In this document: in pieces, positions 4,022-18,308 of the stretch | Position numbering within the stretch: the first letter of the stretch is position 1 | Layout of the letters: every line of letters starts with the position of its first letter | Source: Deltaproteobacteria bacterium | GTDB taxonomy: Bacteria > Myxococcota > JACRCW01 | Assembly: GCA_016218805.1 (NCBI GenBank) | Contig: JACRCW010000116.1 | Location: 1-34,288, forward strand | Reading direction: 5' to 3' | DNA length: 34,288 nucleotides | The notes under the pieces: generated by a model | Seen by the model: the letters and a program-made list of their open reading frames with translations, nothing else | Database searches by the model: none | Told to the model about the DNA's origin: nothing | Position numbers and translations under genes: made by a program

Positions 4022-5908
4022 ATGTCGGGCGGAACGGTGAAGGGTCGCCGGGCGGCAGATCGTCGCCGCGAACGCGAATCGGATGACGAAGGCGAGAGCC
4101 TGCTGGCCGAGAGCACCATGCCCGGCCGCCAGGTGCCCGGCCCGGACCCCAGCGGTTTTGACGACGGTGGCGGCACCGCCACGCGCGGCCCGGACGACCG
4201 CAAGTCCAAGACGTCCATGACCTCCCTCACCAACGTGGGGCAGGCAGCCAAGCAGGCCATGAAGCAGGACCCGCTGGAACAGACGGCGGTCCGGCCCATC
4301 CACGAGGGCCCCCTCCCGCTGTCCGGCCGGCTCATCTGCCTGGAGGGCAAGGACGTCGGCAAGACGTTTGACCTCACGCATGACGTCATGGTCATCGGCC
4401 GCGGCGCCGAGGCGCACCTCAAGCTGACCGACCCGGGCGTGAGCCGGGTGGCGTTTGAAATCCGGTTTGACGCCGGGGAACTGGCCTACCGCTACAAGCC
4501 CGTGACCGTGGAGCCGTGCCCGCACATCAACGGCGAGGAGGCCGCCGGGGAGCGCGTGCTGGATGACGGTGACGTGCTGGAGACGGGCGAGACCACGCTG
4601 CGCTTCATCCGCCAGGACGGCCCGGCCCCCATCCCGCGCGAGACACCCAAGCCGCGCGAGCCCAGCCTGGTGATGCAGCTGGACCAGGGGCCGGGCATCG
4701 TGGAGCGGACCCGCGCGGCGCTGGTGCGCGCGCGCGAGAACGCACGCGTGTTCAAGCGCCTGCTCGGCGTGCTGGTCGTCGTGGTGTTGGCGTTGCTCGT
4801 GGGCGGGGTGTTTGGCTTCCAGGCGTGGCAGCGCGCGCGCCGCGAGGCGTCCCTCAACGACCCCGCGGGCGCCTACCAGACGCTGCTCAAGCAGGCGCGG
4901 CAGTACCGTGAGAGCCGCCGGTGGCCTGACCTGGCCGACACCGCGCTGGCGGTGGACGCGCTGGCCGCGGACCGTGGGGACGGTGCGCGCCTGGCCGAGG
5001 AGGCACGCGCCGAGCAGCAGGCGGAGCGCAACCTGGCGCTGGGGCGGATGAACTATTCCAACGGGAACCAGGACGCGGCGCGCAGCGCGCTGCGGCTCAT
5101 CCCGGACGGCAGCGTGTACCGCGCGGACCGGGACCAGCTGCTGGAGCGCGTCAATGAAGTGGGCCGCACCGCGTCGGTGGCGGGCATCCGCAAGCTGTTG
5201 GAACTGGGCCGCTATGAAGAGGTGGCCGAACGCTGCGACCAGCACCTGCTCATCTACCCGGGTGACGCGGAGGTTGCCGCACTGCGGGCCCACGCTGTCC
5301 GCAGCCAGCTGGCGCGCGAGGCGCAGGGCAGCGGCGCCTGGCAGGCCACGCGGCACAAAGCGCTCCAATCGCTGGAGGTGTCGGATTTCTCGGGCGCCAT
5401 CCTCATTGTGGAGCGGGCGCTGGACACGCCGGACCGGGCGCTGGCCCAGTCCTTCCTGGGGCGGCTCAAGTCCCTGCAGGCGGAATGGAAGGCGGGGCGG
5501 GAGAAGCTGTCCCGCAAGGACGCGCGCGCGGTGGAGCCCTTGTCCCGGGCCAAGGCGCTGGAGGCAGAGCTGGGCGGCGGGAAGACGCCGCTGTCCCAGG
5601 ACATTGCCCGCGCGCTGGGTGACGCGCACTACCTGGCCGGCGTGGACCTGTTGCAGAAGAACCGGGACTGTGACGCGCGCGCCGCGTTTGACCGCGCGCT
5701 GTCTGAGCGCCCCGGTGACACCAAGGTGGTGGACAAGCTCAACCGCCTGGCCAACAAGGGGCGTGAGCTGCTGGGCAAGGCGGAGGCCGCGCGCGTGGCG
5801 GGCAGCAAGGGCGAGGCCGCGCGCCTGGGCCGCGAGGCGGCCTGCCGCCTGCCGCGCGGCGAAGAGGACCGCGCCCGTGCTGAGAAACTCGCCGGGGGGC
5901 GGGGGTGA
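4022..5908 (+). CDS. FHA-domain membrane protein with C-terminal TPR-like repeats
   Basis: FHA motifs VMVIGRG...DPGVSR...ING...LDDGDVLETG; one hydrophobic helix (LLGVLVVVVLALLVGGVFGF); helical TPR-like C-terminus; start uncertain. Confidence 0.8.
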   Translation: MSGGTVKGRRAADRRRERESDDEGESLLAESTMPGRQVPGPDPSGFDDGGGTATRGPDDRKSKTSMTSLTNVGQAAKQAMKQDPLEQTAVRPIHEGPLPLSGRLICLEGKDVGKTFDLTHDVMVIGRGAEAHLKLTDPGVSRVAFEIRFDAGELAYRYKPVTVEPCPHINGEEAAGERVLDDGDVLETGETTLRFIRQDGPAPIPRETPKPREPSLVMQLDQGPGIVERTRAALVRARENARVFKRLLGVLVVVVLALLVGGVFGFQAWQRARREASLNDPAGAYQTLLKQARQYRESRRWPDLADTALAVDALAADRGDGARLAEEARAEQQAERNLALGRMNYSNGNQDAARSALRLIPDGSVYRADRDQLLERVNEVGRTASVAGIRKLLELGRYEEVAERCDQHLLIYPGDAEVAALRAHAVRSQLAREAQGSGAWQATRHKALQSLEVSDFSGAILIVERALDTPDRALAQSFLGRLKSLQAEWKAGREKLSRKDARAVEPLSRAKALEAELGGGKTPLSQDIARALGDAHYLAGVDLLQKNRDCDARAAFDRALSERPGDTKVVDKLNRLANKGRELLGKAEAARVAGSKGEAARLGREAACRLPRGEEDRARAEKLAGGRG

Positions 5909-5909
5909 C

Positions 5910-6326
5910 ATGAACGACGTGCCGCGCCTGCAGGTGCTGGTGGCTGATGACGCCCGCGTCATGCGGATGCTGCTGCGCACCATGCTCAACCGCGTGGTGC
6001 ACGCGGACGTGGTGGAGGCCAACGACGGTCCCACGGCGCTCAAGTGCGCCACCGCCCAGGTGTTTGACCTGGTGTTCCTGGACATCAACATGCCCTATAT
6101 GAACGGGCTGACGGTGCTGGACTCGTTGCGGCACACGCCGGAATACCGGGACCGCCCCATTGTGATGCTGACGGCGCTGGGCCAGGAGCGGCACCGCGCC
6201 CGCGGCCTGGCGCTGGGCGCCAGCGCCTACATGCTCAAGCCGCTGCGTGAAATGGAACTGGTGCGCACGCTCATGAAGCTGGTCCCGGAAGCGCTGGCCA
6301 GGCGCGATGCCCGGACCGGCCGCTGA
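5910..6326 (+). CDS. Single-domain response regulator (CheY-like)
   Basis: VLVADD, FDLVFLDINMP (phospho-Asp), IVMLTA, YMLKP; starts 1 nt after the upstream stop. Confidence 0.93.
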   Translation: MNDVPRLQVLVADDARVMRMLLRTMLNRVVHADVVEANDGPTALKCATAQVFDLVFLDINMPYMNGLTVLDSLRHTPEYRDRPIVMLTALGQERHRARGLALGASAYMLKPLREMELVRTLMKLVPEALARRDARTGR

Positions 6327-9145: not shown

Positions 9146-9445
9146 CTAATCGCCCGGACGCGCCGCGGTGCACCGCCCCGCCGTGCAGGACAGGCCGGGC
9201 TGTATCCCCTGGCAGGGGGCGTCGTTCTCGCAGGGCGGCGCGCAGGTGCCGCCCATGACGTCCACATGGCAGACCACGCCGTCACGCGCAGCGCAGTCCG
9301 AATCCGCGCGGCAGTCCAGCCAGACCACCGGGCCTCCAGCCGTCACGGGTGCTGTCCGGTCAGGCCTGGGCAGGCTCCCGCCGCCGGACCGCCGGGGGCA
9401 CGCCGCCAACGCCAGCAACGCAAGAACGGCCGCAAGCAGTCGCAT
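9146..9445 (-). CDS. Small Cys-rich lipoprotein
   Basis: MRLLAAVLALLALAAC lipobox; 8 further Cys in the CRADSDC...C...C..PC...C...C...C pattern. Confidence 0.7.
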   Translation of the reverse strand: MRLLAAVLALLALAACPRRSGGGSLPRPDRTAPVTAGGPVVWLDCRADSDCAARDGVVCHVDVMGGTCAPPCENDAPCQGIQPGLSCTAGRCTAARPGD

Positions 9446-9496
9446 GGACAGCCAACCTGCCACCGCTGCTCCAGCGCTGTCACCCGGCTTGTGAGG

Positions 9497-9631
9497 AAAA
9501 AAAACGGGAGCCGACTGTCCAGGTGGGGGGGTACCCGAAGCAGCCGGCTCCCGAAGGGAACCACGTTTAGTGCACGGCCGACTAGGCTAGAACCGGGGGG
9601 GGAAGTTCGTTGCCCTGCCGCTCCGTGCGAG
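9497..9631 (-). ncRNA. Candidate sRNA with two long hairpins bearing poly-C loops and an intrinsic terminator
   Basis: Hairpin 1 at 9572-9628 (loop UCCCCCCCC); hairpin 2 at 9505-9553 (loop ACCCCCCC) followed by U8 at 9497-9504; a sigma54-like promoter predicts +1 near 9630. Confidence 0.65.
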
Positions 9632-9640
9632 TCAATTGTG

Positions 9641-9657
9641 TACACGCACCATGCCAA
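9641..9657 (-). promoter_or_regulatory. Sigma54-like -24/-12 promoter of the candidate sRNA
   Basis: Minus strand TTGGCATGGTGCGTGTA: GG-N10-GT, one mismatch from the canonical GG-N10-GC; an AT-rich region lies upstream (9730-9860). Confidence 0.5.
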
Positions 9658-9810
9658 ATGCAAGCGGTTGTGCGGATCCCGCCGAGAACCCCGTTTTCTT
9701 TGAGGCAACTCCGCGACCGCCCCTGTGACGTGATCTCCGACATACAAGGGCATATGCACCCTATATTTGCGGATGATCGGAAAAGACTTCATATTTACAA
9801 TCAATTACGC

Positions 9811-9840
9811 AAAACATGGGCACTTGTGCCCGTGTTTTTT
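9811..9840. terminator. Inverted repeat, probable terminator of the minus-strand ferredoxin/hypothetical operon or a protein-binding site
   Basis: AAAACATGGGCAC-TT-GTGCCCGTGTTTT(TT), 13-bp arms with one mismatch and T-runs on both strands. Confidence 0.5.
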
Positions 9841-9855
9841 GAAACCCTGGTTATT

Positions 9856-10254
9856 TCACCCGTCTAGGAGCTGCACCACGGCCTCGCTTGTGGTTCTCAG
9901 TTCACACGCCACCCTCTCCACGGCCCACACCCGCAGTCCCGGCGCTGGTGTCTGCCCAAGAGACCTCTTGCCCAGGGCGACCTGCAGGAAGTGCTGGTAG
10001 AGGTGTACGGCGTTCGCCCACAGGGTGTAGCCCGCCAGGACGTGGGCTTCAGCGTTTCCGCTGACCAGGGCGTGGACGCGGGCCAGGCGCTCCGCCAGGC
10101 GGGTTGCGGAGGTGGATTGCAACTCGCGCAGCGCGCCTGGGCACCGGGTGCCCAGTTCCCGCATGCGCGCGCGGCGCGCCTTGGCCAACTCAGGAGGGAA
10201 CGCCTTCAGCCCTTGGGCCCTGGCGCGGTCGCGTTCGTCCGCCAGGGACACCAT
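9856..10254 (-). CDS. Hypothetical protein (true start may be further upstream)
   Basis: Plausible helical protein directly downstream of the ferredoxin; frame stays open upstream towards ~10335. Confidence 0.55.
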   Translation of the reverse strand: MVSLADERDRARAQGLKAFPPELAKARRARMRELGTRCPGALRELQSTSATRLAERLARVHALVSGNAEAHVLAGYTLWANAVHLYQHFLQVALGKRSLGQTPAPGLRVWAVERVACELRTTSEAVVQLLDG

Positions 10255-10334: not shown

Positions 10335-10781
<447 letters not shown>

Positions 10782-14791: not shown

Positions 14792-15811
14792 TCACCGCGT
14801 GCGGAAACGGAACTCCGCCGCCAGGTACTTGCTGGCAATCTTCCCGCGCCCCGCCAGCTCCTTGACCTGGTCCAGCACCACGTCCTGCGTGCGGTAGCTG
14901 CGGTCCTGCGTCAGCGAATCCCGCGATTCCTTGGCCTTGGTGATGTACTCCATCAACAGCTTGCCGTGCGCGCGCGGGAAGCGCTGGCACATCTGGCGCA
15001 CCAGCTCGGGGTCCTCGTAGGCCAGTGACTTGGCCAGCCGGTACAGGCCGGCTTTCTGGAACAGCTCCTCGGTGTGCGTGAACCCGTCCAGCACGCGGGA
15101 CAGGAACCGCTGCGCCACCTTGACCTCCTCCACGTCCTGGCTGGCCACCCGCCGCACCGCCGCAATGAGCTCCTCGGCGTTGCCCTTGGGCAGGCGCGCC
15201 AGCAGCTCCGCCAGCGCGCGCTTGCCCACCGCGGCAAACGCACACGCCAGCTCATCAATGCCCACCGCGCGGCACACGCTCACCAGCTCCTTGCCCTCCA
15301 GCAGCACCAGGTCACGGAACCCCAATGACTGGATGTCCGTGTCCACCACCGGCATGGAGGCAAACTTCTCGTCGTACCGGGCGCGCACCAGCTTCAGGAT
15401 GGCCAGCGGGACGTTCTGGAACTCGCTGCGGGGCGGCAGATCCCGCTTCAGCTCCGGCGGCAGGCGCTCCACAATCTGCCGCGCCAGGCTGGCGGGCATG
15501 TGCATCAGCGCGGCGGCCACCACGCGCGGGCGCTCGCCGCGGAAACCGGCCGCCAGCCAGGAGGGGTCCACGCCCTCAATGCCGCGCGTGTGCCGGTACT
15601 GCATGTACTGCTTGAGCTCCCGCAGCATCAGCGGGATGCGCTTCTCCTTGGGGATCTCCAGCAGCTTCTGGCTCTTGGCCTTCATGGGCGCGGAAATCTC
15701 GTCCGGCAGCAGGTCCAGCAGCGCCATGCCGTCCTTGCCGCCAAACGTGAGGGTGGCCAGCAGCAGCGCGCTCTGCTCGCGGTCCAGCGGGTGCAGCAGC
15801 GGGGCCAGCAT
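14792..15811 (-). CDS. FliG-like protein (FliG-M and FliG-C-like segments), likely SctK-position partner of SctJ
   Basis: GERPRVVAAALMHMPASLARQIVERLP resembles the FliG EHPQ region; FRDLVLLEGKELVSVCRAVGIDELACAF...EVKVAQ and QDVVLDQVKELAGRGKI resemble FliG-C; lies immediately after sctJ. Confidence 0.7.
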   Translation of the reverse strand: MLAPLLHPLDREQSALLLATLTFGGKDGMALLDLLPDEISAPMKAKSQKLLEIPKEKRIPLMLRELKQYMQYRHTRGIEGVDPSWLAAGFRGERPRVVAAALMHMPASLARQIVERLPPELKRDLPPRSEFQNVPLAILKLVRARYDEKFASMPVVDTDIQSLGFRDLVLLEGKELVSVCRAVGIDELACAFAAVGKRALAELLARLPKGNAEELIAAVRRVASQDVEEVKVAQRFLSRVLDGFTHTEELFQKAGLYRLAKSLAYEDPELVRQMCQRFPRAHGKLLMEYITKAKESRDSLTQDRSYRTQDVVLDQVKELAGRGKIASKYLAAEFRFRTR

Positions 15812-15817
15812 GGCCTA

Positions 15818-16714
15818 TCAGCCCGGCGGCGGCGGCGGAGCCGGTGCGTTGCGCTTGGCCAGCGCGGTGAGCTGCGTGTTGGCCTGCTTGAGCTTGCTGG
15901 AGGTGGTCACAAAGGACACCAGCAGCGCAATGAGCCCTATCAGCGCCACCCCCAGCGCCGCGCCACCGCCCATCAGGATGGTCTGCAGCTTCTTGCGTTC
16001 CTGTTCATTCACCACGGCAATGCCGCCGAACTTGGGCGCGCGCGCCAGGTCCTGCCCGCCCGCCTCATCCTCCGTGCCAAAGGTGCCCAGCATCTTCTCC
16101 GTGGCCGGCCGGTTCAGGTTGGCCATGACGGTGACGTACTGCGGGTCCAGCCCCTCCACGGAGGCGGCCACCAACCGCTGGATGTCCTCCACCTTGAACG
16201 GCGCTTTGCCGCCCACCTGGTTGAAGGTGATGGTGACGGCGGCGGTGGCGGGCGTGGGCTTTTCGTTGAGGTCCTTGAGCAGGTCCTTCTTGGGCTTGAC
16301 GATGGTGACGTGCGCCTCCACCACGCCGGGGATGGTCTTGATCTTCCGCGCAATCTCGCCCTGGATGGCCATGATGAAGCCGGCTTCCTCCTCCGTGGCG
16401 GTGGGGATGAGGCCCTTGTTGGCCGGGTCATACACGCGGTCCAGCGTCATCTCCCGGGGGCGCGGCAGCTGGTTGTCCACCAGCACCCGGCGCGCGTCCT
16501 GCGCATCCGCACCGCCCACGGTGACCTTGTACGTGATGGTGCGGCCGCCCTCTTCGCGTTCCTTGTGCGCCTTCACACCGCCGGCTTCCAGCACGTAGAC
16601 AATCTCGTTCGCCTCAAACTCGGTGAGCTGGTGCACCACCTCCTCCTTGGCACAACCCGCCGCGAGCAACGCGACCACCGGCAGCACACGGCCGATCCGA
16701 CCGCACATGGACAT
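15818..16714 (-). CDS. sctJ: Type III secretion inner-membrane ring lipoprotein (SctJ/YscJ/EscJ family)
   Basis: AGGAAGG RBS; lipobox LAAGC; LTEFEANEIVYVL, LIPTATEE, IKTIPGVVEAHVTIV, IQRLVAASVEGL; C-terminal TM helix. Confidence 0.9.
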   Translation of the reverse strand: MSMCGRIGRVLPVVALLAAGCAKEEVVHQLTEFEANEIVYVLEAGGVKAHKEREEGGRTITYKVTVGGADAQDARRVLVDNQLPRPREMTLDRVYDPANKGLIPTATEEEAGFIMAIQGEIARKIKTIPGVVEAHVTIVKPKKDLLKDLNEKPTPATAAVTITFNQVGGKAPFKVEDIQRLVAASVEGLDPQYVTVMANLNRPATEKMLGTFGTEDEAGGQDLARAPKFGGIAVVNEQERKKLQTILMGGGAALGVALIGLIALLVSFVTTSSKLKQANTQLTALAKRNAPAPPPPPG

Positions 16715-16841
16715 GGATGTCTTCCTTCCTTGGAACGGGGGCTCACCCAGCGCCGGCCACTCTAGTCCGAGGCCCGGGGGAAAAGGGAGCCCGTCACGCG
16801 GGGACTTGTCCGCGCCCGCAGGGTGGTGCTTGCGTGCAGCC

Positions 16842-18308
16842 ATGCCCTCCAACGCCACCTGGCTGTTCGGCTGCCGCAAAGCCACCTTCACCGTGGAACA
16901 ACCCCGGCCGTTCTCCCCCTGGGTGGGCCTGCTCTTGGACCCCTCCGGCCTGGTGGTGGGCCACTGGCTGAGCACGGGACCGGACCTGGATGACTCGGTG
17001 GCGGCGTGGCTGCGGGACACGCTGCGCCGGGTGGGCGCGCCCGCCGCCATCCGCACCGACGACGCCGCGCTGGCCGCGCGGCTGGGGAACGTGGGCGTGC
17101 CCGTCACCGCCGGGCCCTGCCCCGGGCTGGATGAACCGTTCAACGCCATGCTGCGCGCGCTGGGCGGCCCCACCCTCCAACCGGACTACCTGGGGGACCC
17201 CGCGGTCACCCCCGCCATGGTGAAGACCTTCTTCCAGGCCGCTGACCTGCTGTGGAAGGCCGCGCCCTGGCGGTACGTCCAGGGGGACATGCAGACCCTC
17301 GCACTGTCCATCCCCGCGCTGGGCATCCAGGACCACGTCGTGTCCGTGATGGGTGCCGCGGGCGAGCAGTTCGGCTGGGTGCTGTGGGAGACCCCCGGGG
17401 CGTTCCGCCAGTTCACCGCCGTGGGCGAGGAGGTGGCGGCCGCCGGTGAGGACATGCCGCCGGAAGCCATGTACTGGCTGTCCGTCACCTTTGAAGACAT
17501 GCGGGACCTTCCCAACCGCCTCCAGAAGCAGGCCAAGAAGCTGCGCGGGCATTCGCGGCAGGGGGTCCCGCTCATCATGGCGTTCCGGGACGGCCGCCCG
17601 GTCCATCCCAATCCCCGCGAATACCGCGTGGCCATCGCGTTGTCGGAAGCGGTGGCCGGGTTCATCCCGACGTTTGCCGCGGAGTTCCGCCATCCCACCG
17701 GCCGCACCACCTCCGCCACCATCACAATCCAATATGAGACCGGCCCCGAACCGCTGCAGGCGCGGCTGGTTGCCCCCCATCCCGCGCTGGAGTGGCCCCC
17801 GGAGGACGACGAACCGGACCAGGACCGCAACACGGAGGTGGCGGAGGAGATGCAGGAGGACTTCGCCGACTGGCAGGCGGAACGCCGGCCCGCGCGCAAG
17901 GGATCACCCGCCCACCTGGGCGCCTTCATGATCGGGGCGATGGTGGATCGGCGGGGCCACGGCGGGCACGCGTGGGACGCCGGGATGTTTGCCACCTTCC
18001 TGCGGGAGGTGGTCCCCGAGGAAGTTGCGCTGCAGGCGGAAAACCTGGGGGTCATGGAAGCGCAGCTGCAGGAGCTGGTGATGTGGCTGGAGGACGAGGA
18101 CCTGCTGACCGCCAGCGCGGCCGCGGCGGTGCGCGCGGCGCTGCCGGGGTGGTGCCGGGAGGCGGTGGCCCGGGCCAGCGACCCCGCCAACTGGGGCCCC
18201 GCCAAGCGCGTGCTCCAAATGATGCACCAAGCCGGCGTGGACCCCAATGACACCGCCGCCGTGAACGCGTTCCTGCAGAAGCTGAACGCGGGGCGCCCCA
18301 TCCGGTAG
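16842..18308 (+). CDS. Hypothetical protein
   Basis: Long ORF with protein-like composition (KAAPW...VSVMGAAGEQFG); divergent from sctJ. Confidence 0.75.
   Translation: MPSNATWLFGCRKATFTVEQPRPFSPWVGLLLDPSGLVVGHWLSTGPDLDDSVAAWLRDTLRRVGAPAAIRTDDAALAARLGNVGVPVTAGPCPGLDEPFNAMLRALGGPTLQPDYLGDPAVTPAMVKTFFQAADLLWKAAPWRYVQGDMQTLALSIPALGIQDHVVSVMGAAGEQFGWVLWETPGAFRQFTAVGEEVAAAGEDMPPEAMYWLSVTFEDMRDLPNRLQKQAKKLRGHSRQGVPLIMAFRDGRPVHPNPREYRVAIALSEAVAGFIPTFAAEFRHPTGRTTSATITIQYETGPEPLQARLVAPHPALEWPPEDDEPDQDRNTEVAEEMQEDFADWQAERRPARKGSPAHLGAFMIGAMVDRRGHGGHAWDAGMFATFLREVVPEEVALQAENLGVMEAQLQELVMWLEDEDLLTASAAAAVRAALPGWCREAVARASDPANWGPAKRVLQMMHQAGVDPNDTAAVNAFLQKLNAGRPIR

Follow-up and report, generated by a model that had tools for sequence, protein, structure and literature searches.

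The question raised by this locus is whether the minus strand of a 34,288-nucleotide stretch of deltaproteobacterial DNA from the phylum Myxococcota (the whole stretch is called the window here) encodes a small regulatory RNA, to which known RNAs it would be related, and on what it would act. The host genome has 6.4 Mb and 70% GC, and is 92%-complete. A preliminary description had proposed twin hairpins with C-rich loops and a U8 tail on this strand, and all of these parts are present in the sequence. It had also put forward a conserved RNA gene of about 135 nt with a sigma54-type promoter, which is borne out by homologs, by covariation and by an independent model match. Positions 9497-9630 are very probably a real and uncatalogued small-RNA gene, with its expression standing as a prediction.

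Structure and promoter of the predicted RNA

The predicted RNA is about 134 nt long (9497-9630, minus strand), its ends being placed by the promoter spacing and the U tract. Hairpin 1 (9572-9628, minus strand) has 19 pairs, supported by sequence, fold and covariation, and its loop is formed by U9603 and eight C residues at 9602-9595. A linker of 18 nt separates it on the minus strand from hairpin 2 (9505-9553, minus strand), which has 20 pairs, serves also as the terminator stem and closes on A9532 and seven C residues at 9531-9525; this second loop is shorter than that of the homologs. The U8 tail (9497-9504, minus strand) completes an intrinsic terminator and is matched by U7 in the three twin homologs described below. 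When 9632-9497 is folded, both long hairpins are recovered, their C8 and C7 loops open, at -62.1 kcal/mol (z -4.05; none of 200 shuffles equals it), and when promoter and tail are added the fold reaches z -2.70, with 3 of 200 shuffles as good. Both C-runs are unpaired in the predicted fold with a mean probability of 0.99-1.00, the value for the C8 loop of hairpin 1 being 0.99. The pairing given earlier for the hairpins holds, but the bulged bases had been left out of its strings. The G-U pairs and one-sided changes fit an RNA rather than a DNA palindrome, as had been argued, and the sole closing-stem change at this locus is a compensatory G-C to A-U exchange next to the loop.

The core pattern of hairpin 1 occurs once in the 6.4 Mb genome, and blastn, nhmmer and pattern searches find no paralog there, so the RNA is single-copy in this 92%-complete assembly. 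The Rfam search that had been proposed, Pxr included, gives no match at the locus, which is thus uncatalogued: the whole window has no match at gathering thresholds, and at E 10 the region 9200-9900 has chance-level matches, the best being Scr3202 with 17 bits against a cut-off of 52. A literature search, with subscription papers mostly outside its scope, returned no description of wider C-loop RNAs beyond Pxr; Chen et al. 2019 and Chen et al. 2014 may cover some of the wider homologs. A Bdellovibrio paper considered as a poly-C precedent (PMC3627812) was discarded, since the passage in question reads 'poly-cistronic'. A small-peptide reading was dropped because the short frames across the RNA vary among twin loci.

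The sigma54-type -24/-12 promoter lies at 9641-9657 (minus strand). Its -24 GG is at 9655-9654 and puts the transcription start near 9630, while the -12 position (9643-9642) is GT and not the consensus GC; the promoter and start proposed earlier therefore stand in the -24 element and the spacing, and deviate in the -12 element. Taken by itself, the relaxed promoter pattern does not exceed chance in the window (one found, 0.59 expected), and the call at this locus is supported because TGC stands at the same spacing, as the -12 box, in all eight other aligned copies. The host genome has rpoN.

Two dyads further upstream are candidate sites for an enhancer-binding protein. The first is a perfect 14-bp dyad (9818-9831), 175 bp before the -24 box and with 10 perfect copies in the genome; it is also terminator-like and could instead end the upstream gene. 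The second is an imperfect box (9748-9761), 105 bp before the -24 box, and a match of at least 7 of 10 positions to it is found 99-104 bp upstream in 5/5 copies of the same-family genome, in 0/3 of the sister family and in 1/32 members outside the class. Boxes like both dyads stand at matching distances in all five same-family-genome copies, with single p values of 0.002-0.2 and with three of the copies being tandem duplicates; in the sister family the dyad boxes have no clear match. By a consensus derived from this locus itself, both boxes occur together at 1 of 66 sigma54-like sites in the genome, which is this locus. The upstream dyad of Pxr loci, a motif derived here from those loci and not from print, is present at 3/3 Pxr, 2/2 f15, 8/9 f30 and 7/12 Polyangia-class loci, and at 0/9 copies of this class, 0/5 f4 and 0/1 f6 loci. 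Because the upstream boxes differ from the Pxr-type dyad, the activator is likely to be other than PxrR. Another site of the genome (G000:C116:17821-17845) matches the promoter region of the RNA in 21 of 25 bases (E 4.1), either by chance or as a co-regulated promoter.

Relatives within the class and across the phylum

Three other genomes of the class (G001-G003) form the comparison set. In them the pattern of promoter plus C7 gives 14 rows from 11 distinct places, eight of which fold as members, and homologs with canonical sigma54 promoters are present in all three genomes. Three of the homologs have twin hairpins and a length of 148-152 nt, and all three follow the same ferredoxin gene; one of them (L022) has a small extra hairpin in the middle. 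The remaining five have one hairpin, measure about 60-70 nt and end in a U tract. Three of these are tandem genes about 400 bp apart with their own promoters and dyad boxes (L015, L018 and L021; G001:C497:37763-38640), an arrangement like the pxr arrays of Cystobacter. All eight homologs have TGC at -12 and a common C-loop core.

The loop and closing stem are near-invariant, and the outer stems change in pairs; the homologs sought by the preliminary description are found, in twin and single form and with covarying stems. Across eight copies of hairpin 1, an alignment from which one of two near-identical tandem copies was excluded, 91.7% of cells are paired against 83.5% in shuffled alignments, and two-sided change is seen at 5 of 17 pairs; of the five measures, three beat all 500 shuffles and two are not above them. 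The hairpin-2 alignment of four homologs, in which one row is partly misregistered, has 86.4% of its cells paired and two-sided change at 5 of its 22 pairs. The controls for both hairpins ignore relatedness. Stronger and independent support than these counts comes from two other searches. When this genome is left out of a hairpin-2 model, the top match of that model in the genome is 9497-9553 (E 2.2e-5), and a metagenome search with a loop-only twin pattern returned one true homolog among 53 matches (L217), which has a canonical sigma54 promoter that was absent from the pattern. The other 52 matches are without the promoter, and those inspected are low-complexity C tracts. None of four pattern matches in viral contigs resembled the RNA. 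In one twin homolog (L010, from G003) and in L217, a tract of U6-7 follows hairpin 1 and could yield a short and a long RNA, which recalls the long and short forms of Pxr.

The genes around the RNA are partly shared among twin loci. Upstream, a 4Fe-4S ferredoxin gene with a Fer4 match (10335-10628, minus strand) precedes the RNA also at 3/3 other twin loci, with 57-85% identity. Between this gene and the promoter is a gene of 132 aa (9856-10254, minus strand) that has no Pfam match and a counterpart in the same place at one of the three other twin loci (34% over 90 aa). Downstream, 51 nt past the U tail, a Cys-rich gene of 99 aa without a Pfam match (9146-9445, minus strand) is presumably lipoprotein-like, as we read its lipobox. 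A homolog of it lies directly downstream at two of the three other twin loci and at L217, and among 174 candidates its sole match is itself. Neighbours otherwise vary among copies, and the five single-hairpin paralogs and the wider relatives adjoin unrelated genes, often on the opposite strand.

A strict pattern with a canonical promoter and C7 within 20-50 nt is found in 203 of 401 genomes of the phylum, against about 46 in the reversed control; one of the 203 (G195) is unpublished, and the present genome is outside the 203 because of its GT at -12. Carriers are frequent in f11 (113/172, which is Pxr itself), f15 (41/67), f30 (12/17), f22 (6/7) and f4 (8/18), and the pattern is found in 0/21 genomes of f10. 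Of 27 new loci that were folded, 21 form a long hairpin with the C-run in the loop. A record labelled Polyangiaceae belongs to a class of which 32 among 251 genomes have the pattern (control about 9), and 12 of the 30 loci returned there are member-like. In the genome collection the pattern gives 43 stretches, of which eight fold as family members and the rest are treated as chance. Named records that share the core are labelled Myxococcota, Deltaproteobacteria, Pseudomonadota or Polyangiaceae.

Members carry one to three C-loop hairpins: one in the five paralogs of the class, two here and three in f4, where two RNAs of about 230-250 nt (L038:1306-1538, minus strand; L042:1527-1772, plus strand) have the last of three as terminator. 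At L038 an NtrC-like gene is transcribed divergently. In one f4 genome (G081) the hairpin-2 model matches C136:9633-9679 and C63:25019-25072 with E 0.003 and 0.03. In f11 genomes there are C-loop gene arrays of up to five. The hairpins thus look like modules, with one, two or three per RNA and with gene arrays in some genomes. Two f15 hairpins (L061:1474-1536, minus strand; L063:1530-1594, plus strand) have a single C8 loop, a sigma54 promoter and a U tail. They stand at the pxr position, with an NtrC-like gene (60% to PxrR) upstream, a gene for an NADH-dehydrogenase subunit downstream and Pxr-type upstream boxes. The Rfam Pxr model has no match over the cut-off in that f15 genome, and these hairpins are likely true Pxr orthologs that the model misses.

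Resemblance to Pxr, 6C RNA and sX13

The RNA is built like Pxr (RF01812) and is not detectably of the same family. Both have a sigma54 promoter directly ahead of the first stem-loop and an intrinsic terminator, and the hosts of both are alike in that Hfq is not detected and in having tandem paralogs in some genomes (PMC5568312, in its accessible part). The Pxr hosts are of the same phylum as this genome, but of another class. In both, this first stem-loop is a long hairpin that exposes a C-run, which in Pxr is C7 closed by GG/CC pairs and here C8 on a different closing stem. The hairpin-2 loop region of the three twin homologs resembles stem-loop 1 of Pxr. In Pxr the one C-loop is followed by SL2 and by a conserved non-C SL3 with an 8-bp stem, whereas here there are two C-loops, the second in the terminator; some Cystobacter paralogs of Pxr have two stem-loops.

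The Pxr model has no match at E 0.001 genome-wide and none at E 10 over 9200-9900 (gathering threshold 80 bits), and in the same search it gives 123-135 bits in 3/5 genomes of families f11 and f15. Neither a pxrR gene upstream nor an NADH-dehydrogenase gene downstream is present at the locus, where the neighbours are the ferredoxin, unknown and lipoprotein-like genes. In this genome the closest matches to PxrR reach 43-51% identity, the f15 ortholog having 60%, and a C7 run is absent downstream of all six best matches. A joint model of Pxr, f15 and f30 (R1; only three base pairs, a weak model) scores 11.8 bits for loop 2 and misses the class genome-wide; its best matches all have E 0.6 or worse, and those fetched are without the promoter-hairpin unit (G001:C471 is coding). 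Conversely, class models have no match to Pxr loop 1 at E 1, and a separate search gives 13.4 bits (E 0.41). Judged by the profile score, the arrangement of its stem-loops, the neighbouring genes and the upstream dyads, the RNA is not a Pxr member, and the two readings left side by side earlier, a new family or a distant Pxr analogue, agree with this Pxr-like design. Within a set of selected loci totalling 115 kb, the class model of hairpin 2 (R3) matches the f15 hairpins (E 1.5e-4 to 3.5e-4); it does not do so genome-wide and may score a shared design. Because they stand at the pxr position and are weakly matched by this model, the f15 hairpins are a possible bridge between Pxr and the class.

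Pxr is a textbook sRNA whose direct targets were long unknown. In the accessible parts of the published work its origin is placed within one myxobacterial suborder and is considered recent, and it gates multicellular development (PMC5568312, PMC8538405). A single C-to-A change in loop 1 abolishes function and leaves accumulation intact, and target pairing and protein binding are both left possible by the authors in the text available (PMC5684412). In a proximity-ligation preprint, accessible in part, Pxr is found joined to several mRNAs close to their Shine-Dalgarno sites (10.1101/2025.09.11.675593), and its targets and processing are the subject of further papers, likewise accessible in part (PMC11928866, PMC10217877, 10.64898/2026.08.28.747804).

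The distribution of the sigma54-plus-C-loop design suggests that it is much more widespread than the published work on Pxr implies. Its presence in a distant class with one to three loops, and at the pxr position in a family missed by Rfam, makes the origin of Pxr testable, and the same finds make it testable whether the C-run is the seed for G-rich ribosome-binding sites. Tentatively, Pxr may be no recent novelty of the fruiting myxobacteria but a derived branch within an ancient and modular family of sigma54-driven poly-C hairpins, with one to three hairpins, often duplicated and present in several classes. Its lineages would have been rewired to different enhancer proteins, it would form an Hfq-free layer over signalling genes with G-run ribosome-binding sites, and the present twin RNA would be deep-branching. 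The mechanism class of C-rich loops is already known, so that what is new is a family of a known kind and not a principle.

The RNA has a closer architectural likeness, absent from the preliminary description, to the actinobacterial 6C RNA (B11, RF01066, Actinomycetota); that account had likewise been without the upstream dyad boxes and the relatives with one or three hairpins. Both RNAs consist of a pair of stem-loops whose loops are C-rich, and both hosts are high in GC and without detected Hfq; 6C RNA takes at least six C in each of two loops, which compares with C8 and C7 here. According to the part of the source available, the C-rich loops of 6C RNA pair with G-rich ribosome-binding sites without chaperones (PMC6486639). 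The 6C model (cut-off 47 bits) has no match over the cut-off in four genomes and none at E 1 in this genome, the control genomes being also below the cut-off. The 6C model has 75 positions, whereas the present RNA has about 134 nt, stems of 19-20 pairs and sigma54 control; 6C RNA is confined to high-GC Gram-positive bacteria, whereas this host is in the phylum of the Pxr-bearing genomes. The likeness to 6C RNA is one of convergent design. The Xanthomonas RNA sX13 also presents C-rich apical loops on stable stems. It is Hfq-independent and represses mRNAs with G-rich motifs near their starts, including those of signalling and motility genes, and compensatory mutants failed, as given in the accessible text (PMC3771888). 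It has three stems with loops of 4-5 C, belongs to a gammaproteobacterium and has no sigma54 link in that text, whereas the RNA described here has two stems and a sigma54-type promoter. The Rfam search gives no sX13 match at this locus.

Predicted mode of action and competing explanations

The RNA is probably a trans-acting repressor that pairs by its C-loops with G-runs independently of Hfq. We infer transcription, the activator, base-pairing, repression and the targets alike. An enhancer-binding protein on both upstream dyads would activate the sigma54 RNA polymerase, which would start near 9630 and stop at U8 after hairpin 2. The long stems would hold the two pure C-runs open for Hfq-independent pairing with G-runs in or close to the ribosome-binding sites of several mRNAs, so that translation is lowered. 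Hfq is detected in 0/5 genomes, which are this one and four relatives, by a search whose control is positive in 5 of 14 genomes. The loci suit a loop that acts in trans, as an exposed pure C-run is repeated one to three times while the neighbours change. Because the loops are pure C, target choice would be loose.

Receiver-domain signalling genes would be the best-hinted target class. In a post hoc comparison with home-made gene calls, in which paralogs are counted as independent, a run of at least five G directly precedes the start in 16 of 121 receiver-domain genes and in 233 of 4884 other genes (OR 3.0, p 0.0003), at least six G in 8 of 121 against 55 of 4884, and, for paralog-anchored starts, at least five G in 6 of 53 against 12 of 544. 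Among the controls, C-run and GGAGG are not significant, and AGGA has a slight excess among the anchored starts (p 0.02). For all called genes, G6 or longer stands just before the start of 64 (against 35 of 2821 for C6 or longer), and G7 or longer is no commoner there than C7 or longer (13 against 12 of 611). A search for a conserved target took 60 of about 61 G7-ATG sites in three relatives; 34 have an open frame of at least 60 aa and nine of these have a homolog here, of which none has six G and one has five. Within the window, a six-G and a five-G run (5892-5909, plus strand) precede a response regulator of 138 aa that starts at 5910, 3.6 kb from the RNA; its leader has a predicted duplex of -25.8 kcal/mol with loop 1 and is among the best predicted partners.

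Protein-titrating sponge RNAs driven by sigma54, of the CrcZ and CsrB/RsmZ type, are known, and they have many more repeats than the RNA described here. That the repeated C-loops act as a decoy for a C-binding protein, with copy number setting the capacity, is unlikely. Identical loops, one to three per RNA, together with tandem gene copies would suit such a decoy, as would the negative search for a conserved mRNA target and the possibility of protein binding that the accessible text on Pxr leaves (PMC5684412). The C-loop RNAs studied so far nevertheless act, in the portions of the papers available, on G-rich mRNA sites (PMC6486639, PMC3771888), and Pxr contacts mRNAs near Shine-Dalgarno sites in the preprint, also available in part (10.1101/2025.09.11.675593).

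A leader or attenuator, in which read-through of hairpin 2 would control the downstream lipoprotein-like gene with or without a role in trans, is a distinctly improbable explanation. Such a gene follows the RNA at three of four twin loci and at L217, the gap here being 51 nt from U tail to ATG. In L087 (2626-2920) and L217 the lipoprotein-like frame has no ATG and opens at a GTG that is in frame within the stem of hairpin 2, so that the signal peptide or hydrophobic start spans the U tract of the RNA, and in L074 (2664-2981) the frame, also without ATG, extends back through the terminator. On the other hand, the gene at the present locus has its own ATG downstream of the U tail, one twin locus is without the gene, the reading phase relative to the C-run varies, the minimum-energy structure has no alternative antiterminator fold, and the single-hairpin paralogs and wider relatives have the unrelated neighbours noted above.

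It is highly unlikely that the family is real and the copy here weak or silent through loss of the consensus C at -12. The GT in place of the TGC of the eight other copies and the shorter loop 2 would agree with decay, but this is the sole copy found in the 92%-complete genome, the change in its closing stem is compensatory, and both upstream boxes are intact and paired at no other of the 66 sigma54-like sites. It is extremely improbable that the locus holds just terminators or repeated DNA palindromes beside a fortuitous promoter match. The chance level of the relaxed pattern and the terminator formed by hairpin 2 and U8 would agree with this, but promoter, spacing and loop are conserved jointly across four genomes, the sole true match of 53 in the metagenome had a promoter outside the search pattern, the G-U pairs and one-sided changes fit RNA, and the single copy is not a dispersed repeat.

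Elsewhere in the window, at 14792-17173 on the minus strand, FliG-like and FliF/YscJ-like genes belong to a flagellar or type III-like cluster.
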